Shown here piece by piece: positions 752 to 30,759 of a DNA stretch of 64,000 bases. Position numbers and translations under genes: made by a program. Each line of letters starts with the position of its first letter. Within the stretch, counting starts at the first letter, position 1. Below the pieces are notes generated by a model. The model was given only the letters and a program-made list of their open reading frames with translations, was not told the DNA's origin and did not search any database. The stretch is from Amphiura filiformis (taxonomy: Eukaryota), in NCBI RefSeq assembly GCF_039555335.1, contig NC_092646.1:36923911-36987910 (forward strand), written 5' to 3'.

Positions 752-934
752 CTTGTCTCTAGTTTCTATGGCAACAAAACTAGTGAATTTGGTCACAATG
801 GAGTATTCTTTACTCAACCCAATGATGTAGTTTTTCTGCTCCGTTTTCTTCACTTCATGTTCTGTTCGGTTGACATCAAGAGTTCCATCCTCCCAGTCTC
901 TTATGATGGCACGAGCTGTCAGCTGATGCAGCAT
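752..934 (-). CDS. PARP4: PARP4 exon (region after the VWA domain): LHQLTARAIIRDWEDGTLDVNRTEHEVKKTEQKNYIIGLSKEYSIVTKFTSFVAIETRDK
   Basis: Acceptor ttatag|ATGCTG and donor AAG|gtaagg. The peptide matches the human PARP4 segment IHKLAARALIRDYEDG…SLITQFTSFVAVEKRDE. It is in frame with the upstream exons, and the gene continues beyond the window start. Confidence 0.75.
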
Positions 935-2028
935 CTATAATGGGTCAAAGGTCATATTCAAGTAAATGGGTAAAGAATCATGCACTTATACTACTATTCA
1001 TATACTACTATAACAGTGAAAATATTTGTGCAAAATTAATCTTTGTGCTTTTTGTGTTCCATGCTGCTACCGCGAAAATAATGTGTAAATATATTGCTTT
1101 TGTGTATTCGCTGACATAGTGCATGTTAGTAACCACATGGTTACTGGTTCAAGCCTGGGATCATACACCTGTTAAGCTTTGTGTTGTGATCATTTCGATC
1201 AGTGGTTCATAACAAAGTAAGCATGAGCCAGTTGACGTAGCAACGATCACATTCTAACGTGTACTATGACAGTGAACAGGTAAGAAAGCTTAGAATTGCA
1301 AATTTAAGTGAAACAATTCAAAATGCGTGAAAAATAAATAACGTCAAAATTTCTTTTTAAAAGTATAAAAATGTTTGACATTTGGAGAAATATTTTAAAA
1401 GTGAAGGAGAACTCAAAGAAATTCTCAAAAGGTTTTTTCATGTGAAAATTGTCAACAAGGAAGAAAAAAGCAGTATTGAAAAATGTGAAGCTGCATTCAA
1501 CTGTGTGTGGAAGTTTCTGCACAGACCAGGCACAAACTCCTCAAACATTGACTAAAATGGCAAAATTTTACCCTTATTAGTTCCATTTGGTTTGAATCAC
1601 TTGCGGAATATGTTACCACTCCTATTTGAACTTTCGTTTTTTACCCAGGGTAGCTCATTCAATGTCAAACCATTGTGAAAATGCAAAAATCTGGTTTTTC
1701 ACAATTTGATGGAGAAATAATTTGGATGTACATTGGTTCGCTTCGAGATTGGTAGTGACGTCAATGCTTTGTTACGGTTGCGCAGCAAGCATACCGACAA
1801 GTCACCTTTGTATGTGTGCATATATGTTCTGCACGATTAACTTTATACCCACACGATTTGAAACTGCGACCAGGCAAAATACGCACATACATCACTACTG
1901 AATTTGAGGTGAACCAAAGAATAGTATTTTTCCCATCCATACACAGAAAACAAGGCAAAGTCTCAGCTCCCCTTGTCTAACATTTGTTATGAACATTTAT
2001 ACTGAATTGCAATTGACCTTTGACCTAC

Positions 2029-2109
2029 CTTGCCTTCAGTGATACTGAGGTCATGAGTGGATACCATAGTTGAAACTTCCTTCCCAGCAATCATTGCTTT
2101 CAGTGTTGC
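2029..2109 (-). CDS. PARP4: PARP4 exon: ATLKAMIAGKEVSTMVSTHDLSITEGK
   Basis: Acceptor ttttgcag|GCAACA and donor GGCAAG|gtaggt. It is 81 bp and phase 0, and resembles human ATLCALIQEKEFRTMVSTTELQKTTG. Confidence 0.65.
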
Positions 2110-2252
2110 CTGCAAAACCAACATGTCATGCAAATGCAATCATATTTTAGTCAGAATTTCGAGTAACAGTTTTTTTTTCAAATAAGTGCCCTATGACCCC
2201 TAATGAACCCAATGATCAGAAATGATAGAACATTGAAGGTTATAAGTTTTAC

Positions 2253-2515
2253 CTGAGTGCAAAATGGCACATATCCATAGACGACTTGTCGAGATCCACT
2301 GAACAATGATGTGATCTGATTGGGTGCTTGAATCGGTCTCGGTGCGTGGTTATCAAACTGTTGCCATTCCACGCTGACTGATGTAAGCACCGGATGAGAA
2401 GATTTGTTCAGTTGAGACTTGATCTTTCCTTCCCATTTGGATTTCACTTTGCTGTCAAAGAACTGAAATGCTCCGGCACCGACTCGTGCAAGCGCCCTCA
2501 ACAGGTGACGATTGG
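2253..2515 (-). CDS. PARP4: PARP4 exon (distal end of the VWA region): ANRHLLRALARVGAGAFQFFDSKVKSKWEGKIKSQLNKSSHPVLTSVSVEWQQFDNHAPRPIQAP…VYGYVPFCTQ
   Basis: Acceptor tctacag|CC and donor CAG|gtaaaa. Very close to human STANRHVLRILSQCGAGVFEYFNAKSKHSWRKQIEDQMTRLCSPSCHSVSVKWQQL…VYGFIPHCTQ. Confidence 0.8.
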
Positions 2516-2742
2516 CTGTAGAACTGAGGTAAATGACATAAAACATAATTGAAAATAACATTGAAAACTTTCTTTCTCTCTACCCATACACAAAATTAAT
2601 AGACCCAATACATTTGTTCATGGTTTAAAAGTTCATCACTAATATACTCAGCAGTCCAGTTAGACTTCATGTTTCAATGATACTTTTATTACAAAATATT
2701 TCATGATACATTTTCAATTTTTAATTGCCAAATCATCCTTAC

Positions 2743-3001
2743 CTGACACCGAATGTAAACAAGCGAGTATACATGGCATTATCATGTACAGCATTCAATG
2801 TAGCTTCTTCATTGTTGATATGCCCGTCAGATATCAAGTACACATTCCGCAGAGTCTCCGCTTTGAGTAAGAAGTAAGCATGTAATGGATGCCAGGCTTC
2901 TGTGCTACCCATGGAAGCCTCTAAGCTGTTGATAAATGTCTGGGCTTTCTTTGTGTTGATGCCATTCTTGGGTTGACTGCTTGCAAAGAGTTCATCAAAT
3001 G
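2743..3001 (-). CDS. PARP4: PARP4 exon (VWA domain): AFDELFASSQPKNGINTKKAQTFINSLEASMGSTEAWHPLHAYFLLKAETLRNVYLISDGHINNEEATLNAVHDNAMYTRLFTFGV
   Basis: Acceptor cttttccag|CATTTG and donor TCAG|gtaagg. It carries the VWA signature LISDGH followed by RLFTFG (human LVSDGHLQDE…TRLFACGIG). Confidence 0.8.
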
Positions 3002-3229
3002 CTGGAAAAGAAGAAAATAATGTTGGTAATTAGTTTAGAAATATGATAACACAATCTTATCCAACATCACACCAAAGTAGGAAATTTTGACAATTAAGAT
3101 ACTATCATTACTAACTTGCTCAGGGAGGGATTTACAGCAGATACACAGAACATGCTGCAATAAAATCTTCTGGAAGACCTAACAACAGGTGAAAAACTGC
3201 GAGCTAGCACCACCAGTTAGCATCGGTAG

Positions 3230-3715
3230 TGAAGGCGGATGAGTTACGACAACCAAAGTTAACGGCAGTCCACTGGCGGATGAACAGAGGAGAAGGGAAA
3301 TGGTGGTCATCCTTAGTCCACCCAGTAGAAGGCTACAGTATTAGCCTAGAGGTAGAGGGTGGTCATGTAGTTTGGTGTGCTAGGCTATCGGTCGGAAGGT
3401 TGTAAGATCATGAGCTTTCTCATTTATCCTCTATCCCACTCATTGTGGCCCTAAACGTGCAGACACCACAGTGGGTGCATAGCGTGCCGTGGTTCGGAGA
3501 GTCACGTAAAAAGGTGGTCCCATGTAACGGAAGAGCAATATCTGGACATGTAAAAGTTGCAGGCCTTTTCATAAAGAGCAGGGGATCAGCTCGGGCCTGT
3601 TGTCTGTCACACTCAGCCTTTGGGGCTTGGCAGCATATCGACCCGTGGCGCGCTTTGAGGAATCTGAGTATTCAGAAAGCGTGGATAAATGCTGTTTTAT
3701 TTTTTATGTGATACT
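3230..3715 (+). mobile_element. tRNA-derived SINE, full-length copy of a two-copy family
   Basis: The 3420–3711 body is about 90% identical to 28862–29160 in the same orientation. The head (about 3340–3420) has box A- and box B-like motifs, TGTAGTTTGGT and GGTTGTAAGATC. The internal ORFs at 3445..3711 and 28896..29240 are SINE body, not genes. Confidence 0.6.
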
Positions 3716-3796: not shown

Positions 3797-3983
3797 CTGT
3801 TCCAAACACAACAATATTGAAGACCCAATCATCAGGCAGGTGATGTAAGGCTAACAAAGCAATCTTCTTAGCTTCTCTTAAACTCTCCCCTCTCATTGAA
3901 TTGGAAAGGTCCAACATGAAAATGACCTCTGACCTCCCTTCAGTGTTGGCTTCAAATTCTGGGTAGAAAGTCAACATGCATGC
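3797..3983 (-). CDS. PARP4: PARP4 exon (start of the VWA domain): ACMLTFYPEFEANTEGRSEVIFMLDLSNSMRGESLREAKKIALLALHHLPDDWVFNIVVFGTG
   Basis: Acceptor tttacag|GCATGC and donor ACAG|gtaagt. It contains the VWA MIDAS motif DLSNS (DxSxS) and matches human ACMLVFQPD…VIICLDCSSSM…IIQFGTG. Confidence 0.85.
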
Positions 3984-4231
3984 CTGTAAAGAGAAATGTT
4001 AATAAAGAAGTTTATAATTATCCTTCATTTTTAATAGGAGGATGTTGGTGTATAGTGGAAAATTTTCACGGCGGTTTAATTTTTGTGCTTTTCACGGTTG
4101 AACATGCAGTCACAAATTTTTAACCCAACAAAAACATTTATTACACATAGAACTTAATAATGTAAATATAACAAACATATTTTTTCACCAGGTTCGCCGT
4201 CGCAAATAATTAAAGAGACAAGTAAATAAAG

Positions 4232-4306
4232 TGGTCCCGTCTAGGAAACGAACCCAGGACCTCAGGTTTACAAGACCTGTGCCATAACCATTTGGCCACG
4301 GGAACT
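4232..4306 (-). tRNA. tRNA-Thr(UGU)-like gene or pseudogene
   Basis: About 75 nt. It has a D-arm GCCA/AATGGTTA/TGGC, an anticodon arm CAGGT/CTTGTAA/ACCTG with anticodon TGT, and a T-arm CTGGG/TTCGTTT/CCTAG with one G·U pair. The acceptor stem pairs at only 5 of 7 positions. It is intronic, in the same intron as a MITE. Confidence 0.4.
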
Positions 4307-4920: not shown

Positions 4921-5165
4921 CAGTAGTTCTGGTTCTGGTCGTCATCTTTACTTTGCTTAACCTGGCTATCTTTCTTGGATGAGTGGCACTCTACCCACAT
5001 ACGAGGTACGTGAATCTCTGCCAATCCAATCTAAAAACCATCGTCCAAGCATCTTCAAATGCTATGATATCTCTATACTTTGCTTACCTGACTATCTTTC
5101 TTAGATGGGTGGCGCTCTACCCACATACGAGGTACGTGGATCTCTGCCAATCCAATCTGAAGCTG
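4921..5165 (-). repeat. Tandem duplication (2 copies of about 118 bp) of the 3' tail and donor site of PARP4 exon 5088..5310
   Basis: The block …CTACCCACATACGAGGTACGTG[A/G]ATCTCTGCCAATCCAATCT… occurs twice. The distal copy has its donor destroyed (cttaacc in place of cttacc). Confidence 0.7.
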
Positions 5166-5310
5166 AAAGCCATCATCCAACCGTGTGCAACCATCAGCCA
5201 ATGCTACTGTAGCTTTGCTTGCTGTGCGCTTGATTCTGATTGGATGAGTGGGTGACTCCAGAGTTCGAATGTCATAGGGCATCTCTATAGCAACCTCCAC
5301 AGACAGATTG
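5088..5310 (-). CDS. PARP4: PARP4 exon (between VIT and VWA): NLSVEVAIEMPYDIRTLESPTHPIRIKRTASKATVALADGCTRLDDGFQLQIGLAEIHVPRMWVERHPSKKDSQ
   Basis: Acceptor ccatcag|C and donor CAG|gtaagc. Matches human SLTMSIEMPYVIEFI…HIGLSAAYLPRMWVEKHPEKESE. Confidence 0.8.
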
Positions 5311-5460: not shown

Positions 5461-6060
5461 CTTTGACAGATCAGAGTGATCTTACCCTTTCATTTCTTTG
5501 GCTATCTTGACCAGGACCATGCGCAGAATTTTTTAATTGGTGGTGCAGAATTCCAAAATGCGGGCCTCCTCCCAAAAAAATCACTTGCATGCAGAAAGTG
5601 GACTTCACCACCCCCTAAAAAAATCTTCTAATTTGGACCTTCTTCGACATTTGTGCAGTTTTTTGTCATGAAGAGTGTTTTTTGGTAAGGATTTTTTTCT
5701 TGACTGTCTTCAGGTCTGCCTGAGTAACCTCTGACAGTGCACTTCCAAGGAGCTGCACCAAATATTGGTTTATATCCGTCAGCATTAACTAAGTACATCT
5801 AAATGATGTTACCCTTTCATTTCTTTGTCTATCTTGACTGTCTTCAGGTCTGCCTGAGTAACCTCTGACAATGCTGCATCTTTCTTCCAAGGAGTTGCAG
5901 TGCCAACTACACCAAATACTGGTATATATCTGTCAACAGTGACATCTAAATGAACTTACCCTTTCATTTCTTTGTCTACTTTGACTGTCTTCAGGTCTGT
6001 CTGAGTAACCTCTGACAATGCTGCATCTTTCTTCCAAGGAGCAACACTGCCTGGTAGACC
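5461..6060 (-). repeat. Tandem triplication (about 130-bp units, third partial) of the 3' tail and donor site of PARP4 exon 5960..6165
   Basis: The string cttaccctttcatttctttgtctatcttgactgtcttcaggtctgcctgagtaacctctgaca… recurs at about 5951, 5813 and 5495. Each copy keeps a GTAAG-type donor on the minus strand. Confidence 0.7.
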
Positions 6061-6165
6061 AAACACTATCTTATCTCCATCTACAGATAACTCTGCCATG
6101 TAGACTATCTTGATGACCACGGTTGTCTTTGGGGGAAGGTTACCTACACTCACTGTGAACACATC
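5960..6165 (-). CDS. PARP4: PARP4 exon (VIT domain, second half): DVFTVSVGNLPPKTTVVIKIVYMAELSVDGDKIVFGLPGSVAPWKKDAALSEVTQTDLKTVKVDKEMK
   Basis: Acceptor ctttgcag|GATGTG and donor GG|gtaagt. Near-identical to human DVFTVSVGNLPPKAKVLIKITYITELS…ATVAPWQQDKALNEN. Confidence 0.85.
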
Positions 6166-7566: not shown

Positions 7567-7785
7567 TGGTGTTTCTTCATCCATAAGATAAGCTCCATGT
7601 CCCTTGCTGATAGCTTCTTTGTATTCCTTGTGGGCTGTTTCTTTGTCTTTCACCTCCCCTACGATATGCTTGTCATTAATGAAAGCTTCAAATCCACACA
7701 CTGCTGCCATATCATCCAGGGGGAACACATACTTAGCTTCTATCGGGTCATCATTTTCATTGGTGTACACTTGGAAGACTACAAC
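7567..7785 (-). CDS. PARP4: PARP4 exon (VIT domain, first half): VVVFQVYTNENDDPIEAKYVFPLDDMAAVCGFEAFINDKHIVGEVKDKETAHKEYKEAISKGHGAYLMDEETP
   Basis: Acceptor tttttag|GTTGTA and donor CCA|gtaagt. Near-identical to human VIVFQTYTNKSHVPIEAKYIFPLDDKAAVCGFEAFINGKHIVGEIKEKEEAQQEYLEAVTQGHGAYLM. Confidence 0.9.
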
Positions 7786-7799
7786 CTAAAAATTAGACA

Positions 7800-8110: not shown

Positions 8111-8519
8111 AAGATGATAAAAAGAAAATCCTCAGGATATACTCATAAAAAAATACACTATTAACTGATTGTCATCTTTGCTCATCTGATGATAATGTTT
8201 ATCTGATATAGATAGAGATTACATATAATGATATTGCAGTATTAAAGTAAGGAAGTTTGCATGTTTTAAAACCGCTTGATATAAAGCAGATATGCTAACT
8301 ATCAAATTTTTACGGTGACACACTCCTTTTTTTGCCCATTGTTTCTGAAACAAACAAAAAACTGTTCTTTTAATTTGGCAGAATGTAGCTCATATAACAG
8401 AGAACTCTCATGAGTGACACTTGTTGGTTGCTTAAAAACAGTAGACCATGTTGGATGTAGCCCAATACTGGGTTGGCCAAGAACTGAATATCATCCAGAT
8501 CTTGACATCTGATACTCAC

Positions 8520-8650
8520 CTCCGCAGCCAAGTCCAGTAATTTAGCCCTGACATGGACAGCTTTCAGTGGCACTGGTTGATCACTATTAGACAATAGACC
8601 TGCTTGGACTTTGGACAGTGGGTCAGTAATGGACTGCACATCATTCAGAT
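8520..8650 (-). CDS. PARP4: PARP4 exon (linker into VIT): DLNDVQSITDPLSKVQAGLLSNSDQPVPLKAVHVRAKLLDLAAE
   Basis: Acceptor tttcag|AT and donor GAG|gtgagt. Its reading frame was checked codon by codon against ORF 8370..8675. Resembles human AGLQDASGNLVPLEDVHIKGRIIDTVAQ. Confidence 0.8.
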
Positions 8651-8800: not shown

Positions 8801-8966
8801 CAATTTTATCTCCCGATACCATCTCAATGTCCAAGTCATCTTGATCCAAGATGGCTGCCGTCTCCATGGAAACATTGAGGTTTTTAGGTTTGTCTGCTGG
8901 CAATGTGAATTCTACAAGATAGCGTATCCGCTGTTGAGTTATGTCATATACTGCAAATTCATCATC
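8801..8966 (-). CDS. PARP4: PARP4 exon (C-terminal end of the PARP catalytic domain): DDEFAVYDITQQRIRYLVEFTLPADKPKNLNVSMETAAILDQDDLDIEMVSGDKI
   Basis: Acceptor tttttag|GATGAT and donor ATTG|gtaaga. The DDEFAVYD…RYL motif matches the PARP catalytic C-terminus (PARP1 YNEYIVYD…KYLL, PARP4 DDEFVVYKTNQVKMKYII). Confidence 0.8.
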
Positions 8967-10976: not shown

Positions 10977-11816
10977 TTAAGGTACTTCCTGACATCTGGA
11001 CATTGTCCTTACCTTAAAATCTGAAGGATACAGCTCTGTTCCTTTGACTCCATGAACACTATGATATCCTTGAGGGGCTTCTGACAGTTCCTTGTGGTAC
11101 TTCTTAACATCTGGACATTTCCTTACCTTAAAATCTGAAGGATACAGCTCTGTTCCTTTGACTCCATGAACACTATGATATCCTTGAGGGGCTTCTGACA
11201 GTTCCTTATGGTACTTCTTAACATCTGGACATTGTCCTTACCTTGAAATCTGAAGGATACAGCTCTGTTCCTTTGACTCCATGAACACTATGATATCCTT
11301 GAGGGGCTTCTGACAGTTCCTTGTGGTACTTGTTGACATCTGGACATTGTCCTTACCTTGAAATCTGAAGGATACAGCTCTGTTCCTTTGACTCCATGAA
11401 CACTATGATATCCTTGAGGGGCTTCTGACAGTTCCTTGTGGTACTTGTTGACATCTGGACATTGTCCTTACCTTCAAATCTGAAGGATACAGCTCTGTTC
11501 CTTTGACTCCATGAACACTATGATATCCTTGAGGGGCTTCTGACAGTTCCTTGTGGTATTTGTTGACATCTGGACATTGTCCTTACCTTGAAATCTGAAG
11601 GATACAGCTCTGTTCCTTTGACTCCATGAACACTATGATATCCTTGAGGGGCTTCTGACAGTTCCTTGTGGTACTTCTTAACATCTGGACATTGTCCTTA
11701 CCTTGAAATCTGAAGGATACAGCTCTGTTCCTTTGACTCCATGAACACTATGATATCCTTGAGGGGCTTCTGACAGTTCCTTGTGGTACTTGTTGACATC
11801 TGGACATTGTCCTTAC
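10977..11816 (-). repeat. Tandem array (about 7–8 copies of 117 bp) of the 3' tail and donor site of PARP4 catalytic exon 11817..12000
   Basis: The unit is ACAAGGAACTGTCAGAAGCCCCTCAAGGATATCATAGTGTTCATGGAGTCAAAGGAACAGAGCTGTATCCTTCAGATTTCAAG followed by gtaaggacaatgtccagatgtcaagaagtacc, repeated head to tail. Every copy retains the GTAAGG donor. Confidence 0.8.
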
Positions 11817-12000
11817 CTTGAAATCTGAAGGATACAGCTCTGTTCCTTTGACTCCATGAACACTATGATATCCTTGTGGGGCTTCTGACAGTTCCTTGTG
11901 GTACTTATTAACATCTTGGCATTTTCCAAGTGCTACTTCATTGATGGTCATCAGTCTTGTACCAGTTGTCTGACTTGCTGCAGAATATTTGGCACTTGTG
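11817..12000 (-). CDS. PARP4: PARP4 exon (catalytic domain): TSAKYSAASQTTGTRLMTINEVALGKCQDVNKYHKELSEAPQGYHSVHGVKGTELYPSDFK
   Basis: Acceptor cctgtcacag|C and donor AAG|gtaagg. Matches PARP4 STSIKYSHPGETDGTRLLLICDVALGKCMDLHEKDFSLTEAPPGYDSVHGV and PARP1 SKSANYCHTSQ…LLLGEVALG…KGKHSVKG. Confidence 0.85.
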
Positions 12001-12574: not shown

Positions 12575-13160
12575 CACAAAACCAGAAATTTACTCACGAT
12601 TGACGGTTTCGTATATCATGGTCGATAGACATCTTCAGAATGATGATGGTAGATCCTCACCACTTCCGGTTTGCCGGATCCTGACTGTAGATGGTGTATC
12701 AGCCAGGAGGGGATCGTATACGTGACTTAAGTAGTGGGCCCCCTCGTCTCTATTCATGACGTTGGTTCCCCTTCTCCTGATCCAGATGGATTCTCTGATG
12801 TGTCCAGAGTTAGAATCACACTCCTTACAAATAGGATTTTTGCATTATCCCAGTTAATGACGTGATTGTGTTGCACAGCATGCTCTGCTATATAGCTGAT
12901 TTTGACTGTTCACTTGACGATTGTTTACCAGCTTGGCGGGTATAGTTTTGCTTATTCTTCGACACCCTGGCTGTTTCTTTTTGGTGTTTGTTGAGACGAG
13001 TCTCGAATTTGCGACCAGTTTCGCCCACTTAGAATGGTTACAGTTGGTGCACAGAATTTCGTAGACGCAATCAGTAGTGTTACGGGGGTCGATTTTATCC
13101 TTACGATCGACCATGATATAGACGAAACCGTCAACCGTGAGTAAATTTCTGGTTTTGTGC
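12575..13160. mobile_element. Element with about 50-bp inverted termini and a degenerate GIY-YIG-like ORF (Penelope-related fragment?)
   Basis: Termini AAACCAGAAATTTACTCACGATTGACGGTTTCGTATATCATGGTCGAT (12575–12625) and the reverse complement at 13108–13160. The minus-strand ORF 12854..13195 contains …DCVYEILCTNCNHSKWAKLV…, resembling the GIY-YIG core (GVYKIPCxCG). Confidence 0.4.
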
Positions 13161-13830: not shown

Positions 13831-13959
13831 GCAGAGCATTAAGGTAGTAATAGTTTCATTTGTATCTTGCCCCTTTCTTAACCTGTCAGTCTGTCTGTCT
13901 ACACATTGATAGTCAAGCAGGTGCCTATTTCACTGGTTGCAGTATTGAACCGTGTGTGC

Positions 13960-18235: not shown

Positions 18236-18244
18236 TAAACATTA

Positions 18245-20430
18245 TTGGGTCAGTCCATATCAAAACAGATTGAGTGTACACCCACCCTCTTGGATTTTGC
18301 TCTCCTTTGGCTCAGTGGTACCTTTCATGGACCCCTAGGTGAGGTCACAAGAAAAAATTCAAATTCAATTTCGTTTCGAATGGCGGGCCATCTAAGTTTG
18401 GCGACCTTGACCAAAATTGGGAATTTAAGGTGTCCAAATGACAAAGCGCTCTCTTTGAGAAGCATTTTCTTCTTAATTAAATCAGTTGTGACCCTCTTTT
18501 TGAATGTGGTCACTCACTGCATGGCTGTGTCTGAAATGCCTAATGCCAAAAAAGATTGATTTCGGAATTTCGTTGGGATTTCAGAGGGGGTCAAAATCAG
18601 CACTTCGTACTGTTCAATCAAATTATCTTTGATTTTGAAGGACCCATGATAATGTCACAGTGCACTTATAGGTCCTAATTATGTTCAGAATGGATTAACC
18701 ATGTGCCAATGTCTATGAGCAATTCAAAAAAAGAGAAACTTCTTGACCCCCTACAGAATTTTAGGCCACCCTAAAGTGGTTCAGCCACAAATGGCGCTTA
18801 AAATCGGCAAATTTTGACACCTAATAACTTTAGGTGTACACCAGATATGAATTTCTAGTCTTTTGCATCTGAAAGAATGTAGTATAATGTTTCTAGGAAC
18901 ATAAGATTTGTTTTGTATTTTTTGTGTTTTGATACTAAGTTGATGGTCCCAAAAATCCCAATTTTTGACTAATAATGTACAGGTTATGGGTACAAAATGT
19001 CAATTTCAACATACCCTTTTTTCTATTTTTGATCACTTTATAGCAAATTGTCTTATTTATCCTGTTATTACATAGTTAACAACGTCCGATTTTGGTGATT
19101 TTGGTGTCTAATTATGTTTTCTTGCATGAGAATACAACTACATAACTTAAAAAACTGTATGTATATAAGGAACCAATGACCTCCTTATTACAATATGGAT
19201 GCTTTTGGCAGCCATGTTGCAAAAGAGGGTCATCGGTTCCTTGTATAGTTTATTAATTTGCTTAGTTGTATTTCTCATGCAAGAAAACATATATAATTAG
19301 ACACCAAAATTACCAAAATCAGATGTTGTTAACTATGGTCAGAATTCAAAAAGGTCGTTGACCTATGAACATTTTTCGTCATAGCGCCCTCCTGAAAGGT
19401 CTGACACATAACAAACTATACATTTTTGGAATCCTCATGACCATACGAGTAATTTGATATATTACTTGACATAATTGGGAGCATTCTGAACATTTGACCC
19501 CCATAACCTGTACTTTGCATGTGCATCGTTGCCAGGAAGTGCATTTTTGACCCCTTAAAAATCCATACAGAGGATTAGAAAGTAGTTTTTTCTTATTACT
19601 TGACTCAAAAGCAACTTGAAATATCAGGATAAATAATACAAATGGCTATAAAGTGATCAAAAATATAAAAAAATATCATACTAAAATTGGCATTTTGTAC
19701 CGTATCCTGTATGCATGGTATGTTAGGCAAAAATGACTATTTTTGAAAGCGTCAACTTAATACTAAAACACAAAAAATACAAAACAAATCTTATGTTCCT
19801 AGTAACATAAAACTACATTCTTTCAGATGCAAAAGACTAGAAATTCATATCTGGTGTACACCTAAAGTTATTAGGGGTCAAAATTTGCCGATTTTAAGCG
19901 CCATTTGTGGCTGAACCACTTTAGGGGTGGCCTAAAATTCTGTAGGGTCTAGAAATTTCTCTTTTTGAATTGCTCATAGACATTGGCATATGGTTAATCC
20001 ATTCTGAACATAATTAGGACCTATAAGTGCACTGTGACATTATCATGGGTCCTTCAAAATCAAGATAATTTGATTGAACAGTACAAAGTGCTGATTTTGA
20101 CCCCCTCTGAAATCCCAACGAAATTCAAATCTATCTTTTTGGCATTAGGTATTTCAGACACAGCCAGTGAGTGACCACATTCAAACAGAGGATCACAACT
20201 GTTTCAATTAAGAAGAAAGTGCCCCTCAAAGAGAGCACTTTGTCATTTGGACCCCTTAAATTCCCAATTTTGGTCGAGGTCGCCAAACTTTGATTGCCCG
20301 CCATTCGCAAACGAAATGGAATTTGAATTTTTTTCAGACCTCACCTAGGGATCCATTAAAGGTACCCCTGAGCCAAAGGAGAGCAAAATCCAAGAGGGTG
20401 GGTGTACACTCAATCTGTTTTGATATGGAC
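18245..20430. repeat. Large foldback element: about 2.2-kb near-perfect palindrome with arms of roughly 0.95–1.15 kb, centred near 19200
   Basis: 18245–19190 is the reverse complement of about 19210–20428, for example GGTCAGTCCATATCAAAACAGATTGAGTGTACACCCACCCTCTTGGATTTTGCTCTCC at the left versus GGAGAGCAAAATCCAAGAGGGTGGGTGTACACTCAATCTGTTTTGATATGGACTGACC at the right. The centre is AAGGAACCAATGACCTC…GAGGGTCATCGGTTCCTT. It lies in the 5-kb PARP4 intron between exons 22284..22421 and 17205..17372. Confidence 0.85.
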
Positions 20431-22283
20431 TGACCCTATTACTTTAATGACCCCTATAAGTAGGGATCAAAATTTCATGTTGCCCCTATTGCTACAAAAT
20501 ATTGTTTTTTGGATAGAACTCATCAATAGAAGTATTTTGGTGGTTAAATGGTCAAAATCGGTCAAAAACTTTTCGAATTATGAATTTTCAAAGTTTCCCA
20601 TTCTGACCGGTCATTGGAACGAAATAAAATGACAAGGTCCAAAAATATCAATTGGGAGCAAAATTGGCATAAGCATATATTTACCTTTATATATTTCTTT
20701 ATTTTAACATATATGCAAACATGAAACAAGCATATTGTGAAAGTATCAAAGGGTTTCTTATGAAATGGCACTTTACTAGTCAATGGCATAAATTATTTTT
20801 TCAAACCGAGGCATTGAAATCATGCATTTAGAGAACATTTTGCCAAAAATCATCTAAGATGGCCGATATGGCACAAAATCAAAATTGCACTAAGTCCAGG
20901 TAAACTATTTTTTTTCACAACCAAAAATTTCAATGTTATTGGGTTTAATATGACCAATTAGTAGGTGTATGCAAATTAAATCTTAAGTGTCATTGAAGGT
21001 CATTGACTCATTCACAACAATAGAGGTTATCCACTTCACTCATCATGCTCATGTGTGACTTCTAACAAAAGGTGCTGGTTCCCGTAGTATTCCTCATTCA
21101 AAACAATTCAATACATGACCTCAGAGTTACCTGCATGACTTTCGCGGGCTTTTTTGAAACAGTTATGGTTGCACATTCAGGTATTTCTTTTGAAAGTTCT
21201 AAACAAGGTATAGCCAGCAGCAAGTTGTATATGGTATAGGCCTAAACATATAAGAAAACGTTTAGGGTTGAAATCAGGTGAAAAATACATCGAATGGGCA
21301 CGAAACTTCACATTTATGTTCAGATTGGTGTATTCTTAGCATGATTCGAAAGGCGTATGGAAATTCCAAAGGGAAGCTGGTGATTTAATTTGTAACTCGA
21401 GATCTACTTGTTCAATTTTTTAACCTTTTTACAGAGGGTATGATAGAGGTATTACTGGCAACTCTGCCAAATTACAGCTCAGTAGGCCACGTTTTTCACC
21501 TGAAATTATTGACATGAATATTTTGTGCCATTCTTGAGCATGCTGAACTCAGCCACTGGCAATTAAGCGCACTGTGGCGATGGACCAATTTTGACTCGCA
21601 CTTACAGGAAAATGAAATAAGTTATGTTGCTGTAATTTGCAAGATAGTTACAAAATATAATTGGCATTATAACTTCCCCAATTTTTACAGAAAAATATTG
21701 AAAAATAAAAGAATGAGATCAATTTAGAAATGTCTGTGCAAGCAGTGCACAGTTGAGCTCCCTGCATGTCTATGGCAGTGTTCTAGTCAAGTTGATGGTT
21801 CATTGGTCATCCCTATTATAAGAGAATGCAAATATTTCAACAAATCATCGTTATCCACCTGAACAATACATGCATGTTGTTCACTTCACTTCACTTTATT
21901 CCACTAAGTGTGTTAATGCTAGTGGGTTTGGCATCGTACATTACTGTAAAAGTCAAAATTTGTCATGCTTTGCCAATTTTGATTTTTGTTTCACTTGTCT
22001 TTGCAATTCAAAGTTTTCTTGCATTGACCTATACACAAAAGGAATCTATCCACATTGGTTATTTTTTCAGTAGCTGCTTGAAATATGCACAAATATAAAT
22101 GAATCATGCAAATATCCACATATATTGTCATTGGACAAGACTTGTGGCCTTTGAACGTGTTTAAAACAAAACTGTCAAGAGGTTACATAGGAGGTTATTC
22201 CTTAAACATGTTCAAGGGCAATAAATGACACATAGGCAGTTTTTCCTGCCCCAGATATACAGAATCAACATCTTTCCCCTTAC

Positions 22284-22421
22284 CTTATCAATTGATATAG
22301 TTTCTACAGGAACCGTCAAAATATCAGATAACTGTCCCAGTGCTTCCTGCCATACATGGTCTACCAGACTTGCTACTTCTTCTGTTAATGGCTCCTGAGC
22401 CATACCTCTCTCTAGCATCAC
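22284..22421 (-). CDS. PARP4: PARP4 exon (start of the PARP regulatory domain): (VML)ERGMAQEPLTEEVASLVDHVWQEALGQLSDILTVPVETISIDK
   Basis: Donor AAG|gtaagg, anchored to ORF 22212..22532. Matches PARP4 SQEVSDLVEMIWAEALGHLEHMLLKPVNRISLNDVSKAEG. The 5' boundary is ambiguous: CAG|GTGATG at 22421, or the in-phase alternative CTAG|AG at 22411. Confidence 0.75.
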
Positions 22422-22504
22422 CTGTATCATGAAAAGGTTTGAGTTATGAAAGGGATATATCATCTGAACAGACCCACAACATGTACATTTATATATGGAA
22501 TTAC

Positions 22505-22547
22505 CTTTCAGTATATTAGTGATCCAATCCATCTGGATAGCAGCTTC
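22505..22547 (-). CDS. PARP4: Candidate PARP4 mini-exon EAAIQMDWITNILK(G), the founder of the 83-bp array
   Basis: An open frame bounded by AAG|GAAGCT and AAAG|gtaatt. Possibly homologous to PARP4 …EQLQALLLEEVMNSS…. Only phase-compatible with the next exon if the CTAG|AG acceptor at 22411 is used. Confidence 0.35.
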
Positions 22548-23000
22548 CTTTTGTCTTGGTCACGTTCCATGGTGACTTTGTCTTACCTTTCTGTATCTTG
22601 GTGATCCAATCCATCTGGATTATAACAGCTTCTTTGTCTTGGTCATGTTCCATGGTGACTTTGTCTTACCTTTCTGTATCTTGGTGATCCAATCCATCTG
22701 GATTATAACAGCTTCTTTGTCTTGGTCATGTTCCATGGTGACTTTGTCTTACCTTTCTGTATCTTGGTGATCCAGTCCATCAGGATTATAACAGCTTCTT
22801 TGTCTTGGTCATGTTCCATGGTGACTTTGTCTTACCTTTCTGTATCTTGGTGATCCAATCCATCTGGATTATAACAGCTTCTTTGTCTTGGTCATGTTCC
22901 ATGGTGACTTTGTCTTACCTTTCTGTATCTTGGTGTTCCAATCCATCTGGATTATAACAGCTTCTTTGTCTTGGTCATGTTCCATGGTGACTTTGTCTTA
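22548..23000 (-). repeat. Tandem array (about 5.5 copies of 83 bp) of mini-exon-like units with their flanking donor site
   Basis: Unit …GAAGCTGTTATAATCCAGATGGATTGGATCACCAAGATACAGAAAG followed by gtaagacaaagtcaccatggaacatgaccaagacaaa. Every unit keeps GTAAGA. The unit length is not a multiple of 3. Confidence 0.8.
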
Positions 23001-23336
23001 CCAGGAAAGTTGAAAAAGAAGGAGGGACATCGGAATTATATCCTTGAGATAATCCCGTAGGTAATCCTGTCGCACCTATTCATAGTCCTTTATTCTCAAG
23101 TAGTTACACATCTACTTGAAAGTAGCCTTTGATGTGATGTGGGTTGCCGACTACGGTTGATTAATTTTCACTCCAGAATTAAAACCATATCCAATGTTTC
23201 TATAGAGAATCCCTTGAAAGTATGACACGTGTGTGTTAAGTACCTGATGTTGCTCTGAAGGGATGCTACACGTGGATACTATAAGAAAGAAATTTAGTTT
23301 TGTAAAGATTCCAAAAAAATCCGCCCATTTTGGAAC

Positions 23337-23581
23337 ATATGTGACCGTACATACGAATGAGCCGTAAATGTCCTCAATTGTATTCTGAGTTACAGTGTAA
23401 AATGGGCATGAAGGTCGTATTCATAGGTACCTCAATTTGGTGCTACATGTACCTCATTTAATGAGATACACGTAGCACCAAATTGAAATACCTATGAATA
23501 TGACCTTCATGCCCATTTTACACTGTAACTCAGAATACAATTGAGGACATTTACGGCTCATTCGCGCTGTACGGTCACATA
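23337..23581. repeat. Hairpin palindrome with about 120-bp arms
   Basis: TATGTGACCGTACATACGAATGAGCCGTAAATGTCCTCAATTGTATTCTGAGTTACAGTGTAAAATGGGCATGAAGGTCGTATTCATAGGTA… and its reverse complement, separated by a very short loop near 23459. Confidence 0.8.
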
Positions 23582-24029
23582 TATTAATTATTTAGGAGAG
23601 TGTTTTAGGATTTTGTTAGAAAAGGGATGATTTTTGATCATCTATATTTTATTGTTTTATGTATTTTCCTGTCATTTCCTGCAAACCTAATAAAGATATT
23701 TTGATAATTGAAAATAGGCTGTATCATAAATCGTAGAGGTTGAAAGCGTAACCAAGCGTGCAAAATTATTATTTGCCATGGAACTTCGGTCATATTTTAT
23801 TTGAAATAAACTGGATGTTAGGATCTGCATGCATGGTATGCATAGTATTGATGGTATACAGACACTGACCTTTCCCTAAAACTAGTAAGCATCAACTTGT
23901 GTATCACACCCGTCATGGGTTCGAACCCTTTTGTTGTATTTTATTGTTAAACCTAAATAGCGTGATTGCTTTTGAATGAGCGGCAACACACATATTTTGT
24001 TTGAGGATAGCTGGATCTATCTCCTTTCT

Positions 24030-24600
24030 TTACATCTTCTCTGGTCTTACCTTTCTGTATCTTGGTGTTCCAATCCATCTGGATTATAACAGCTTCTTTG
24101 TCTTGGTCATGTTCCATGGTGACTTTGTCTTACCTTTCTGTATCTTGGTGTTCCAATCCATCTGGATTATAACAGCTTCTTTGTCTTGGTCATGTTCCAT
24201 GGTGACTTTGTCTTACCTTTCTGTATTTTGGTGATCCAATCCATCTGGATTATAACAGCTTCTTTGTCTTGGTCCTGTTCCATGGTGACTTTGTCTTACC
24301 TTTCTGTATCTTGGTGATCCAATCCATCTGGATTATAACAGCTTCTTTGTCTTGGTCCTGTTCCATGGTGACTTTGTCTTACCTTTCTGTATCTTGGTGT
24401 TCCAATCCATCTGGATTATAACAGCTTCTTTGTCTTGGTCATGGTCCATGGTGACTTTGTCTTACCTTTCTGTATTTTGGTGATCCAATCCATCTGGTTT
24501 ATAACAGTTTCTTTGTCTTGGTCCTGTTCCATGGTGACTTTGTCTTACCTTTCTGTATTTTGGTGATCCAATCCATCTGGACAACATCTTCTTTGTCTTG
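24030..24600 (-). repeat. Second 83-bp tandem array (about 7 copies) of the same mini-exon plus donor unit
   Basis: The same unit as 22548–23000, with TGATCC/TGTTCC variants. It lies directly 3' (in transcript orientation) of candidate exon 24549..24710. Confidence 0.8.
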
Positions 24601-24710
24601 GTCATATTCCATGGTGAGGTTGTTTTCTGGTTGTACAGAAAGCTGTAGACCTGCAAAGCTTCTTCACTGGTTGCACTGTACCGACACTCACGGACACCAC
24701 CTGTGTCACT
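24549..24710 (-). CDS. PARP4: Candidate PARP4 exon SDTGGVRECRYSATSEEALQVYSFLYNQ(KTTSPWNMTKTKKMLSRWIGSPKYRK); 3' end uncertain
   Basis: Acceptor gatttacag|AGTGAC. The first half resembles PARP4 GMETRRQFAIKKTSEDASEYFENYIEELKKQ. The second half is itself an array-like unit, so the true donor may lie earlier. Confidence 0.35.
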
Positions 24711-24861: not shown

Positions 24862-25061
24862 CTTGATATCGGATAATTTCCCATGATGCACCATTACTCT
24901 GAATGGATGCGTGACATCATCCCTGATGCTAGCGCCCCCTGGTGGCAGCGGTGGAATGACATGCAACTCCAGAAGGTAGAAGCTACACTCCTTGGTTTTG
25001 GGGTCAGTTTTCTGTACGAATATAGAATCATTAAACAGACTATAATCATGATAATTGCTGA
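24862..25061 (-). CDS. PARP4: PARP4 exon (between BRCT and the regulatory domain): SNYHDYSLFNDSIFVQKTDPKTKECSFYLLELHVIPPLPPGGASIRDDVTHPFRVMVHHGKLSDIK
   Basis: Acceptor ttttttag|TC and donor AAG|gtgaga, anchored to ORF 24829..25086. Resembles PARP4 LPQDFEVAKYNTLEKVGMEGGQEAVVVELQCSRDSRDCPFLISSHFLLDDG. Confidence 0.6.
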
Positions 25062-26164
25062 CTAAAAAACTACCAATCTTTATCATAAATCATTTGAGGC
25101 TGTGTTGAAATAGCCCATTGTCATAACCATGAACAGCAAAGCATTAATGATGTGCCCATTAATGTTACATGGTCCAGAATTAATAATCTATTGCATTCAA
25201 GCAAGGGGCCAAATTCAATAGCTGATGCACACAATAAGTGTGAGGGTAGTGAGGGGTGTAACCTAAAGCACTGACCACCCTATCCTTGACTGACTGAGAG
25301 GTATCGTCTGCCATCTGGATGCCCAAACTGTTCTGAATCTCAGGATGCGCTCAGTTTAGGTCATATATAAAGTGCACAGTTCCACCGCACTGCTTATAGG
25401 TGTGTATCTGGGGTGAGGGGGCCAGCAACCCCCCACTCTAAGCTGCTGTGAACCACTGATTGGCCCATGTGGTTGTCTTTTATAATGTCTATGTGCCTAT
25501 ATTCTTTCCTATAAGTTCTTGACATGTGTTACTCCTCATGGGCTATTGTTCACTGTAGCATTTTATTTAAAAAAATAAGTGATATACAAGATAATTGTTC
25601 AGATAAAATCACATCATTGTTGTGCAGGAAAAACCACCTATGTACTTATGGCCCTTGAACAAAACTGCAAAGAGATTACAAAGAAGGTTTTACTTTAAAC
25701 ATGTTCAGGGGCCAATATGAGATATTTCCTGCCACACGACGACATCGATATATATCAACTATTTGCTGTCGTAGACGACCATGACGTCATATTGGCGACC
25801 CCTGAGCATTACCATAGCAACTGGATCACGCTTTCATGAGAACCACAATGGCGGTATCAATGTATGGAATTTATAGATCAAAAATTTAAATTACCAGTCA
25901 TATTTAAGACCTGCAACCCATGATTTCAGAAGGAAAACATCTCACAAAAGCTTACTAGGCAGTGAAACCCATAAGAAATGGCTAAAACTTGATTTTCAAA
26001 CAGCAGAACATAAACGTGTACAGCGTAGATAGCGTTGTCATGCAAACCGTGTGATCCAGCACTACGGAAGTAGTTGTGACCTCGGCAGGAAGTGATGTTG
26101 GTCTACGACAGCGAATTGACATATGTAACATAAAACCTTTATAAATACCTGTAGAAGAGTACAT

Positions 26165-26385
26165 TTGGCCAATTCATAGCATTCATCTGGGTATGCAGGT
26201 GCCTGGTCTGATCCCAAAGGATACACTCTGAAAACAATCAGTCAACATTAAATTGTAAAAATCAGACAAATACATTCCAAACTGTTACCTTCCTAAGGCA
26301 CCAAGTCTAATTCATAGCATTCATCTGGGTATGTTGGTGCCTGGTCTGATCCCAAAGGATACACTCTGGAAACAATTAGTCAAAA
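26165..26385 (-). repeat. Tandem duplication (2 copies of 110 bp) that contains a splice-site-bounded open segment (candidate small PARP4 exon)
   Basis: Copy 1: tttcag|AGTGTATCCTTTGGGATCAGACCAGGCACCTGCATACCCAGATGAATGCTATGAATTGGCCAAATGTACTCTTCTACAG|gtattt. Copy 2 has CCAACA in place of CCTGCA and a different 3' end containing an in-frame TAG. Confidence 0.4.
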
Positions 26386-26899
26386 ACATATTTATAAGGT
26401 GCGTTGGAGGGGAGCATGAACTATCGGTTGTTTGCACTCAAATATTGAGACAGTTAAAACTGACACACAAGTATGGGTTCTATATAGGAGATACCAAGGC
26501 TTGATATAAAGAGTGCCATCTCTACTCCATATGCATGATCTTTCTTGAGAAGGGGGTAAAAGGTCAAAACTTTCAATTTATTAGTTGCCTTTAAATCTTA
26601 AGAACCTCAAGACCTGCGGAAACATAAATGCAATAAACCATACTGACTCAGGTCTATATCTTTCATTTTAGAGGCTGTGCAATAATGATGAGCCGGGGGG
26701 ATAAAAATTACAAACAGTGTGCCAAAAAATGCTTACCTCCTCTCGGCCTGCCAAATTAGCTGCAATAATTAAAACCTTTAAAACAATTGTGGAGACTAAC
26801 CTTATCTTGTTGATGTTGAAGGAGCTTGCTTTACTTATCTTCGGTTTTTCTTGGGGATGAGCTGGTCCTGAGTTTTAAAAGAAAAATACACAAACAATA

Positions 26900-28536
26900 A
26901 CACAAAAGTAAGTGTTATGACCATGTATAGTTTGAACATAGGTACACACTAGCTCATCTGCACCAAGACACATCTGACACACATTAATGAAACCAAACTC
27001 ACCTGGAACAATCTTCCCTGAGCTGAACTCCTGTGTCATAGATGTCCCACAGACAATGTGTGCATCAGTATCTACATGTACCAGATTATCTTCACTGAGA
27101 CACATATCAAAGAAATTAAAACTCACCTGTGACAATCTTCCCTGAGCTGAACTCCTGTGTCATAGACATCCCACAGACAATGTGTGCCTCAGTATCTATA
27201 CTAGCTTATCTTCACTGAGACACGCATTAATGAAACCAAACTCCCTGTGACAATCTTTCCTGAGCTAAACTCCTGTGTCATAGATGTCAGACACACACAT
27301 TAATACATCAATGACACCAAACTCACCTGTGACAATCTTCCCTGAGCTAAATTCTTGTGTCATAGATGTCCCACAGACAATGTGTGGCTCGGTATCTACT
27401 AGCTTATCTTCACTGAGACACACATCAATGACACCAAACTCACCTGTGACAATCTTCCCTGACCTAAACTCCTGTGTTATAGACGTCCCACAGACAATGT
27501 GTGCCTCTGTATCTACTAGCTTATCTTCACTGAGACACACATCAATGACACCAAACTCACCTGTGACAATCTTCCCTGAGCTAAACTCCTGTGCCACAGA
27601 CGTCCCACAGACAATGTGGCTCTACATGTATTAGCTTATCTTTACTGAGACACACATCAAAGAAGCCAAACTCACCTGTGACAATCTTCCCTGACCTAAA
27701 CTCCTGTGTCATAGACGTCCCACAGACAATGTGTGCCTCATTATCTACTAGCTTTTCGTCACTGAGACACACATCAATGAAACCCAACTCACCTGTGACA
27801 ATCTTCCCTGACCTAAACTCCTGTGTCATAGACGTCCCACAGACAATGTGTGCCTCATTATCTACTAGCTTTTCGTCACTGAGACACACATCAATGAAAC
27901 CCAACTCACCTGTGACAATCTTCCCTGACCTAAACTCCTGTGTCATAGATGTCCCACAGACAACGTGTGGCTCTGTATCTACTAGCTTATCTTCACTGAG
28001 ACACACATCAATGACACCAAACTCACCTGTGTTATAGATGTCCCACAGACAATGTGTGCCTCTGTATCTACTAGCTTATCTTCACTGAGACACACATCAA
28101 TGACACCAAACTCACCTGTGACAATCTTCCCTGAGCTAAACTCCTGTGCCACAGACATCCCACAGACAATGTGTGCCTCATTATCTGCTAGCTTTTCGTC
28201 ACTGAGACACATCAATGAAACCCAACTCACCTGTGACAATCTTCCCGAGCTGAACTCCTGTGTCATAGGCGTCCCACAGACAATGTGTGCCTCTGTATAT
28301 ATACCAGCTTATCTTTACTGAGACACACATTAATGAAACCAAACTTAACCGTGACATGTGCAGCTCTGTATCTACTATAGCTTATCTTTACTGAGACACA
28401 CATCAAAGAAACCGAACTCACCTGTGACAATCTTCCCTGAGCTGAACTCCTGTGTCATAGACGTCCCACAGACAATGTGGGCCTCATTATCTACTAGCTT
28501 TTCGTCACTGAGACACATCAATGAAACCCAACTCAC
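26900..28536 (-). repeat. Tandem array (about 14–15 copies of 120 bp) derived from the 3' part of the BRCT exon, including its CAG|GTGAGT donor
   Basis: The unit encodes …(G)EFGVIDVCLSEDKLVDTEAHIVCGTSMTQEFSSGKIVT and copies the exon text MDFIDVCLSEDKLVDTEPHIVCGTSMTQEFSSGKIVTG. At 120 bp (40 codons) the array is largely open in frame on the minus strand, but the three ORFs 27265..27597, 27581..28006 and 27982..28266 are frame-shifted relative to each other, and the plus strand is also open. Confidence 0.8.
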
Positions 28537-28738
28537 CTGTGACAATCTTTCCTGAGCTAAACTCCTGTGTCATAGACGTCCCACAGACGATGTGTGGCTC
28601 TGTATCTACCAGCTTATCTTCACTGAGACACACATCAATGAAGTCCATACCCAGGATAGGGACACCATATTTCTGGGCCATACGACCTTTGTAAGAATCT
28701 TTTGCCTTCTCTGCATTGCTGACTATCAGGTGAGAGCT
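28537..28738 (-). CDS. PARP4: PARP4 exon (BRCT domain, C-terminal half): SSHLIVSNAEKAKDSYKGRMAQKYGVPILGMDFIDVCLSEDKLVDTEPHIVCGTSMTQEFSSGKIVTG
   Basis: Acceptor attgtag|AGCTCT and donor ACAG|gtgagt. Matches PARP4 THIILDNADVLSQYQLNSIQKNHVHIANPDFIWKSIREKRLLDVKNYDPY. Confidence 0.8.
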
Positions 28739-28861
28739 CTACAATATAATTATGAAAGAGATAAATCAGATATCAGTGTGACATTTCATGCCACCTAATA
28801 TAAAATTACATAACATACACTGGTATCAATTCAAAAATATACCCAAGCTACTGTAAAATCA

Positions 28862-29200
28862 TGAGCTTTCTCATTTATCCTCTATCCCACTCAGTGTGGC
28901 CCTAAACGTGCAGACACCAGAGTGGGTGCATAGTGTGCCGTGGTTTGGAGAGTCACGTAAAATGGTGGTCCCATGTACCAAAAGAGCAATATCTGGACAT
29001 GTAAAAGTTGCAGGCCGTTTTGTAAAGAGCAGGGGATCAGCCCCGGCCTGTTGTCTGTCACACTCAGCATTGAGGTCAACTTGCGCTGCCCTCAGGGGCT
29101 CGGCAGCATATCGACCCGTGGCATGCTTTGAGGGATCTGAGTATCCAGAAAGCGTGGATAAATGCAGTTTTATTATTATTATTGTTACTGCTTATATATA
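28862..29200 (+). mobile_element. tRNA-derived SINE, 5'-truncated copy with a (TTA)n/TA-rich tail
   Basis: 28862–29160 is about 90% identical to 3420–3711. It lies inside PARP4 intron 1. Confidence 0.6.
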
Positions 29201-29479
29201 TATGCCATTCCAAACAGATTATGTTTTGCCAGTTTCTTAAAAACGCCAATGGATTCTGCATTTCTAAAGGCAGTTTGTTCCAGATTTTTATAACACATTG
29301 GCCACTGGCCAGAAGGTACTTTTTGTATTTTAATAATGTGTTTCTCAATTTCACTGAATTGTTGACTCCAATTTTTTTTTTCGCCAGGACACTCAATAAT
29401 TCAAAAAGTAGGGGGGTTCTTCTCCATTTTTTCGCTAGTAAATACTATTTAGCCTAATTGCGCTATTGGGCTATATCAC

Positions 29480-29700
29480 AGGTGTACATCCGCCCAATGG
29501 ACTATAACAGTTGAAATCCATACACCCCTATGGAAGACATGACCTTTATCTTTCACACAATGAGTGTGAATTTCAAATGGAGTTTAACTGAACGGGTGAC
29601 TCCATTTTAAATCTACATCCCCTGTGTGGGAGAAGCTACATCTTCCATAGAGGATGTATGGATTTCAACTGGAATAGCCCAATGCTGTGACAGGCTTAAG
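29480..29700. repeat. Member of the hairpin-containing repeat family seen at 7205..7515
   Basis: It shares TTGAAATCCATACACCCCTATGGAAGA… and GGAATAGCCCAATG with that locus, and is arranged as an inverted pair. Confidence 0.5.
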
Positions 29701-30124
29701 GCATGCACTTGAATCACTATACATGTATGGTCCAGTCATATATATGTAATCATACCACTTATCATAAACTTATTATAGATTTTAACAATAAATTACCTTC
29801 ATTTACTATTTTCAACTTTGATCTCAACACAAGATTAGAAATTTACGGTCATTATTTTGATCTTCATCGGGAGACTGGCCACGGATCACCTCTTGGACAC
29901 TTGACTTTCTACACTCTTGGTAACTTGTATCCCCCTATCATGGTTCAGTGATGATGGTCAGCTCCAACGTACAATGTAGATAACCTCCTTCCACCCCATT
30001 AGAAATATTGTGGTTCCAAGTAAAGACATTTTTAAACTATGTAAGACAAGCTTGTGTTATGATAACAAAAAATAACAAAACTTTAAACTTTTGATCATAA
30101 CACAAGATTGTCTAATAAGTTTAC

Positions 30125-30289
30125 CTTTTTTGTAATAATGTATGACACAATTCCTCCATTATCTGTGATTTTCTTCCTTAATTCTTGCTTCTGTTTAAAT
30201 CTCACTTGAGCTGCATCCAAATCTAAGACAATCTGACATCCATGAAAAATCCCAGCTGCCGTAGCTGTACCGGGAGCTGTACCGGCAAC
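30125..30289 (-). CDS. PARP4: PARP4 first BRCT-encoding exon: VAGTAPGTATAAGIFHGCQIVLDLDAAQVRFKQKQELRKKITDNGGIVSYIITKK (5' extent and start codon unresolved)
   Basis: Donor AAG|gtaaac. Matches the human PARP4 N-terminus MVMGIFANCIFCLKVKYLPQQQKKKLQTDIKENGGKFSFSL. The frame stays open upstream to 30505, with in-frame ATGs near 30382 (MVQPEF…) and 30505. A possible acceptor cattcacag|GTTGCC sits at 30289. Confidence 0.65.
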
Positions 30290-30759
30290 CTGTGAATGAA
30301 ATAACAGTGTGTGTATTAGGGGTAAGTTCAATTGGCATTTATCATGTTTATGGCAAAGATAACAAAATTCCGGTTGCACCATCACGACAACCGATCTGGG
30401 AATCTTGTTCGCACTGCACTCTATACAAGTTATTGAATAATTTTTCACTATGGATCCATCAACAACTGTACCGTTAGTTATTGATATTCCCCAATTCTGA
30501 CCCATCTATTGTTAACCCGGCCATCCATTATTTGTTTAAGAGCCAGTCTCCCTTATTACAATGTATGTACCCAAATCAGGGGGGTTGTGATACAAAAAAA
30601 AATAGAATTTTCTCTAAAAAATAATTTTGGTACATATTAACACCAACAACACTCATGTAAAATATGAGCGTGCACAGCGCCCTCGTTCAGCTTTAAAAAA
30701 TGCTTGAAATTTCACCCTCTCTGAGCCTTACTTGCAAATGGTAAACTTTGAGGTGCGTA

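Follow-up and report, generated by a model that had tools for sequence, protein, structure and literature searches.

The C-terminal end of human PARP4 binds to the major vault protein. PARP4 is located in vault particles, is restricted to mono-ADP-ribosylation, and has an active site accessible to NAD+; vault RNA is bound mainly through its BRCT domain, a WGR domain has been described, and a fragment comprising both of these together with the catalytic domain (BRCT-WGR-CAT) is less active than the catalytic domain (CAT) alone, the BRCT and WGR domains lowering catalytic output (PMC10711553). In this current study, a 64,000-nucleotide stretch of the genome of the brittle star Amphiura filiformis (contig NC_092646.1, positions 36,923,911 to 36,987,910; hereafter the window, to which all positions below refer) was analysed. 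We conclude that positions 752-35129 of the minus strand almost certainly hold the 5' two-thirds of the A. filiformis PARP4 gene, in the form of 23 coding exons for residues 1-1218 of a protein that has 2095 residues and the PARP4 layout.

The brittle star protein resembles human PARP4 (PDB entries 11jf, 9bw6, and 9bw7 for the full-length chain, 8sx1 for the catalytic domain, and 9dfp for the BRCT) in the order of its parts, namely BRCT, a putative WGR region, helical domain, ART, VIT, and VWA, and both proteins keep the H-Y-E catalytic residues and the DxSxS motif. Its identity to vertebrate PARP4 orthologues is approximately 42-44%. The brittle star protein is longer than the human one (2095 versus 1724 residues), its C-terminal half is proline-rich and acidic, and its C-terminal vault-docking region, which is encoded off the window, is barely recognisable by sequence when compared with human PARP4 (its last 154 residues gave a weak match to human residues 1572-1635, E = 0.13).

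Identity and structure of the PARP4 gene

Translation of coding exons 2 to 23 (Table 1) gave a 1213-residue model, and this model was searched against Pfam, PDB, and a large protein collection. Pfam recognised, in order, BRCT (model residues 13-93, E = 5.5e-9), PARP_reg (308-392, 3.5e-8), PARP (416-591, 9.7e-32), VIT (655-765, 5.7e-38), and VWA_3 (905-1056, 1.2e-15). The top match among all PDB chains was human PARP4 (11jf_P, E = 8e-269), in which model residues 12-1212 were aligned with human residues 3-1182 as one HMMER stretch; the PARP4 catalytic domain 8sx1 was matched at 2.6e-81, PARP1 at only about 1e-23, and ITIH4 at 2e-10. The BRCT of the model also matched the human PARP4 BRCT chains 9dfp and 9dev (E = 4e-5). 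Moreover, the catalytic H (LFHAS), Y (AIYFA), and E (DDEF) line up with the human PARP4 residues, and the VWA region, which runs to 2253, opens with the DxSxS metal site (D-L-S-N-S, 3911-3897).

An original prediction, made from the letters of the window, had named a PARP4 orthologue on the minus strand. The domain order, the PDB match, and the database identity given below all bear this out, and the BRCT, helical-domain, VIT, and VWA exons that it had placed were located at the positions listed in Table 1. The catalytic motifs that it had read (H-x-S, here LFHAS; GxxIYFA, here GSAIYFA; EVALGKC and GYHSVHG in exon 12000-11817; and DDEFAVYD) are all in the sequence, and its exon mapping, done without aid, thus proved correct down to single motifs. 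Every domain that it named was found. It did not name a WGR domain; the exons at 26.2, 25.0, and 24.7 kb occupy the position of this human PARP4 domain in the full-length alignment. The linker and WGR-region exons (coding exons 4 to 7) belong to the chain. The 138-residue WGR-region segment, searched by itself, gave no significant PDB or Pfam match and is too diverged for a sequence match.

When the whole model was compared with the large protein collection, it matched P0118 at 100% identity over 100% of the query. P0118 is the NCBI entry 'protein mono-ADP-ribosyltransferase PARP4-like [Amphiura filiformis]' of 2095 residues. P0118 contains the model unchanged as its residues 6-1218, and therefore an independent annotation pipeline chose the identical 21 internal junctions; within the window there is no difference between the NCBI protein and the product derived here. 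An earlier protein search with the VIT-VWA piece alone had returned only fragments of less than 500 residues, and the full model was needed to reach P0118. The next matches were all PARP4 orthologues, from starfish (61%), acorn worms (59%), and fishes (42-44%), and also from corals and molluscs. Among the top 120 database matches, those with informative names were called PARP4, poly [ADP-ribose] polymerase 4, or poly [ADP-ribose] polymerase, with the exception of one row labelled 'cell cycle related kinase'.

The VIT and VWA domains lie C-terminal to the catalytic domain on the same polypeptide, in one frame across the border. Two genes, with a PARP1-3-like one above and a VIT-VWA gene of the ITIH type below, might be suspected from the match of ITIH heavy chains to the VIT-VWA part alone (E = 2e-10) and from the match of PARP1 to the catalytic part. 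However, the frame is uninterrupted over the PARP-VIT border (exons 8966-8801, 8650-8520, and 7785-7567), a single HMMER stretch spans human PARP4 residues 3-1182, and the NCBI protein P0118 joins both parts; the probability of two genes is practically negligible.

A human PARP4 sequence served solely as a lead for tblastn, and the conclusions rest on retrieved proteins and PDB chains. This lead revealed a collinear chain from 22.4 kb to 752, in which one catalytic exon was matched repeatedly. The borders of candidate exons were then set by reading them codon by codon with their flanks and by requiring GT-AG sites and fitting phases. The 22 exons from 30289 to 752 chain in order on the minus strand with GT-AG at all borders and compatible phases throughout; joined, they comprise 3639 nt and encode 1213 residues with zero stop codons. 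The outcome that would have refuted the original prediction, segments that do not chain in this order, was thus put to the test and did not occur. All PARP4 acceptors end in AG behind a pyrimidine-rich run, and all donors begin with GT, mostly as GTAAG or GTGAG. A mismatch of phases led to the 67-nt exon at 26.8 kb: exon 28738-28537 finishes in phase 1, which does not suit exon 26227-26149, as the latter requires phase 2.

At the 5' end, a 15-nt start exon (ATGAAACAGAAACAG, encoding MKQKQ) with GT directly after it lies at 35129-35115 of the minus strand. It is the sole MKQKQ-coding site in the window and supplies residues 1-5 of P0118. The first intron is therefore 4.8 kb long and takes in positions 30505-30290, which the NCBI model likewise treats as intron; with the start exon, the coding exons in the window number 23 and span at least 34.4 kb (752-35129). 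Accordingly, the 22 exons mapped in the original prediction stood as a chain but the count rose to 23, and the upper limit of 30505 that it had set for the gene was wrong, the start codon being in 35129-35115. An ATG at 30505 or 30382 was considered as the start and ruled out, as P0118 begins with MKQKQ, which is joined to the acceptor at 30290. At the other end, truncation of the gene by the window start was upheld: positions 1-751 contain no further exon, and residues 1219-2095 of P0118 have no match there. The gene therefore continues past the window start, and its last 877 residues are encoded beyond it.

Table 1. Coding exons of PARP4 and the tandem arrays or second copies seeded by their 3' ends.
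Feature	Position	Strand	Remarks
Coding exon 1	35115-35129	-	ATGAAACAGAAACAG = MKQKQ, then GT donor; unique window match to first five P0118 residues
Coding exon 2, BRCT first half	30125-30289	-	Acceptor ttcattcacag/GTT, donor AAG/gtaaac; Pfam BRCT at model residues 13-93
Coding exon 3, BRCT second half	28537-28738	-	Final 106 nt seed 117-bp array
Coding exon 4, linker, 67 nt	26801-26867	-	Enters in phase 1, leaves in phase 2; needed for the phases to fit; product equals P0118
Coding exon 5, WGR-region homology begins (YPDECYELAKCTLLQ)	26149-26227	-	Alignment to human PARP4
Coding exon 6, WGR region	24862-25011	-	Alignment to human PARP4; WGR domain per PMC10711553
Coding exon 7, WGR region	24549-24710	-	Final 78 nt seed 83-bp array
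Coding exon 8, helical (regulatory) domain	22284-22421	-	Pfam PARP_reg at model residues 308-392
Coding exon 9, helical domain	17205-17372	-	Final 77 nt seed 97-bp array
Coding exon 10, helical domain	16370-16530	-	Donor GA/gtaggt, phase 2
Coding exon 11, catalytic domain	15417-15554	-	His of H-Y-E, codon 15457-15455
Coding exon 12, catalytic domain	13443-13541	-	Tyr of H-Y-E, codon 13462-13460
Coding exon 13, catalytic domain	11817-12000	-	EVALGKC, GYHSVHG; final 111 nt seed 115-bp array
Coding exon 14, catalytic domain	8801-8966	-	Glu of H-Y-E, codon 8960-8958
Coding exon 15, linker to VIT domain	8520-8650	-	Frame and splice borders
Coding exon 16, VIT domain	7567-7785	-	Pfam VIT at model residues 655-765, E = 5.7e-38
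Coding exon 17, VIT domain	5960-6165	-	Final 108 nt duplicated downstream
Coding exon 18	5088-5310	-	Final 74 nt duplicated downstream
Coding exon 19, VWA domain begins	3797-3983	-	Metal site D-L-S-N-S, 3911-3897; Pfam VWA_3 at model residues 905-1056
Coding exon 20, VWA domain	2743-3001	-	Frame and splice borders
Coding exon 21, VWA domain end	2253-2523	-	Frame and splice borders
Coding exon 22	2029-2109	-	Frame and splice borders
Coding exon 23, last in window	752-934	-	Gene continues beyond position 1
117-bp array	27003-28642	-	14 additional copies, full or partial, of exon 28738-28537 3' end
83-bp array	22501-24617	-	Blocks 24617-24044 and 23002-22501; 12 extra copies of exon 24710-24549 3' end and GT (13 junctions in all)
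97-bp array	16947-17281	-	2 extra copies of exon 17372-17205 3' end and donor
115-bp array	10981-11927	-	7 extra copies of final 111 nt of exon 12000-11817 and GTAA
147-bp array	5795-6067	-	One extra 108-nt copy of exon 6165-5960 3' end and donor; junction copies 1-2
Second copy of final 74 nt of exon 5310-5088	4962-5035	-	92% identical; weakened donor GTTAAG

A close paralogue and the standing of the window copy

A. filiformis has at least one other PARP4-like gene, encoding P0119, which is located outside the window on the same chromosome-sized contig of 60 Mb. BLASTP aligned P0119 with P0118 over 1304 residues at 89% identity, and the protein collection search gave it 94% identity to the window model. 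Within the window, all matches to P0119 fell on PARP4 exons that were already mapped, and at lower identity than those to P0118. From the WGR region on, the two proteins agree in their domains, whereas the P0119 model is without BRCT and begins in sequence that resembles the 117-bp repeat. A more distant PARP4-like VWA fragment of A. filiformis, P0044, was also noted on a different contig.

With so close a paralogue on the same contig, the window copy might be considered a decaying or redundant duplicate, with P0119 as the working gene, and the intronic copies of exon ends with strong donors (described below) could disturb its splicing. Yet all 23 of the 23 exons are open, the splice sites are canonical, and the H-Y-E residues and the metal-ion-dependent adhesion site motif are intact; moreover, it is the window copy that has the BRCT and a full 2095-residue model, and P0119 that is without BRCT and starts in repeat-like sequence. 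A pseudogene is thus very improbable. The PARP4 gene in the window is intact, ordinary, and already annotated by NCBI. With PARP4 conserved across animals and the protein in the NCBI annotation, the gene call itself is of little consequence.

The brittle star gene retains, in intact form, the domains and catalytic residues that PARP4 activity requires, with the WGR as a putative region, and by homology brittle star PARP4 would act like human PARP4. Several points nevertheless weigh against the assignment of this locus as the A. filiformis PARP4 gene. Enzyme activity and vault association of the brittle star protein are predictions from homology. The existence of P0119 bears on which of the two copies carries the ancestral role. 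The C-terminal domain that would bind the major vault protein is located outside the window and is represented in P0118 by the weak match described above; Pfam analysis of the C-terminal 877 residues of P0118 found no major vault protein-binding domain. Finally, support for the exon junctions comes from sequence logic and from agreement with automatic annotation.

Tandem arrays that span splice donors

Tandem Repeats Finder identified six arrays, with periods of 83-147, inside the gene, and each begins in an exon and crosses the donor into the intron. When every exon was compared with the window by blastn, 38 extra copies of exon 3' portions were detected, all of them downstream in the next intron; most reach the last base of the exon, a few are truncated, and the GT is kept in nearly all. 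For exon 28738-28537, the junction CACAG/GTGAGT recurs in 11 further copies (12 in all), with GT intact in 10 of the 11. Exon 6165-5960 also has a separate copy of a 41-nt internal fragment further downstream, at 5740-5700. The stretch of true intron between an exon end and the next copy is only 2, 4, 11, 20, 39, or 52 nt, the introns themselves being 650-2850 nt long. Of the donors in each array, the first is the one used by the NCBI model, and use of the later donors would result in a frame shift (periods 83, 97, and 115) or a stop (period 117).

These donor-spanning arrays are a real oddity and are statistically non-random within this gene. Among the gene arrays with a period of at least 60, six of the seven start in an exon and cross its donor, compared with 0.7 expected by random placement; six such arrays were reached in a fraction of 5e-6 of 200,000 random placements (binomial, 9e-6). 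The remaining large-period array of the gene, a 121-bp tandem repeat of 2.2 copies at 31630-31890 in the first intron, is the only one not derived from an exon end.

It could be argued that the arrays are chance minisatellites in long introns, unlinked to splice sites. Microhomology at the junctions, such as exonic GGAAAATGCCAAG versus GGACAATGTCCAG after the donor, fits plain slippage, and conservation of the GT says little because the copies are highly alike. By contrast, chance does not readily account for the excess of exon-started, donor-crossing arrays or for downstream breakpoints that lie only 2-52 nt past the donor, and the orthologous loci of the starfish Patiria miniata and the acorn worm Ptychodera flava contained neither arrays of this kind nor duplicates of exon ends. 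We consider chance origin doubtful, albeit with an appreciable likelihood. The arrays may have arisen by slippage between microhomologies close to the donor, from trouble in replication or repair that is linked to the donor, or under selection for additional U1 sites. More specifically, the arrays might represent a previously undescribed mode of intron growth, through duplication tied to the donor (e.g., replication trouble at polymerase/U1 complexes paused at 5' splice sites) or through selection for series of decoy donors within brittle star introns; we put this forward tentatively, as a rather unlikely reading.

Among the 117-bp copies, conservation is greater close to the donor; a higher-order repeat made up of two types of unit confounds this observation, which was not counted as evidence of selection. 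The 117-bp array, which has long open frames on both strands, was also considered as coding sequence; this was ruled out by frames that shift between copies, by a TGA in the first copy after the donor, and by would-be mini-introns of about 31 nt.

Three further observations concern duplicated or interrupted sequence at these exons. First, the initial 57 nt of exon 26227-26149, together with the acceptor (ttgtttccag), recur at 96% identity about 140 bp upstream of that exon in the preceding intron, at 26309-26365 of the minus strand; this copy later diverges and contains an in-frame TAG, and it is the only exon-derived copy besides the 38. Second, a diverged second copy of exon 8650-8520 lies directly past its donor, at 8400-8519 of the minus strand (DLDDIQFLANPVLGYIQHGLL versus DLNDVQSITDPLSKVQAGLL). 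Unlike P0118, P0119 has an extra LDLAAEVS segment at the matching place, before the exon corresponding to 8650-8520, and therefore this exon is also tandemly duplicated. Third, the 83-bp array is divided by a 1.04-kb insert (23003-24043) that has no second copy in the window.

Other features of the window and relation to known systems

The window has the look of an animal genome: its G+C content is 34-41%, long open frames are absent, and short segments free of stop codons are numerous. In the intron between exons 5310-5088 and 3983-3797, a transfer RNA (tRNA) sequence of the tRNA-Thr type (anticodon TGT) was detected at 4231-4305 of the minus strand by Rfam (49 bits) and likewise by ARAGORN; either a genuine tRNA gene or the head of a short interspersed element derived from a tRNA may be present here. 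This was the one tRNA-like match in the Rfam scan, which returned nothing else. An interspersed element of about 320 bp is present in two copies (3401-3704 and 28852-29177) that are 86% identical, in the same orientation, and in different PARP4 introns. Two intronic inverted repeats were also observed, one with 830-bp arms of 90% identity approximately 540 bp apart (18244-19077 and 19613-20439) and the other with 330-bp arms of 83% identity approximately 230 bp apart (13933-14255 and 14483-14812); both pairs may be foldback elements or elements resembling miniature inverted-repeat transposable elements.

Upstream of the PARP4 start, no recognisable gene was found in 35130-64000. Ten long open frames (eight at 34.5-59.7 kb, and the intronic 12857-13270 and 29079-29444) gave no Pfam match. 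A pyrimidine-rich low-complexity tract occurs at 37.3-37.8 kb. On the minus strand, the segment 57003-57314 may be coding.

Literature searches found no published description of donor-spanning arrays. If such arrays were genome-wide, they would bear on intron growth and on how the spliceosome chooses the first among many identical donors. The nearest published idea is that introns change, by sliding or gain, via tandem duplication across an exon-intron border (PMC2891723, and the papers that it cites on the origin of introns from tandem arrays). The arrays in A. filiformis PARP4 are like those tandem-duplication introns in that the repeated units carry a splice site, and in that normal splicing involves one copy, with the others left as intron. 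They are unlike them in that no new intron has arisen here; instead, existing introns have been lengthened by 2-14 copies of the upstream exon end and its donor, at six exons of one gene.

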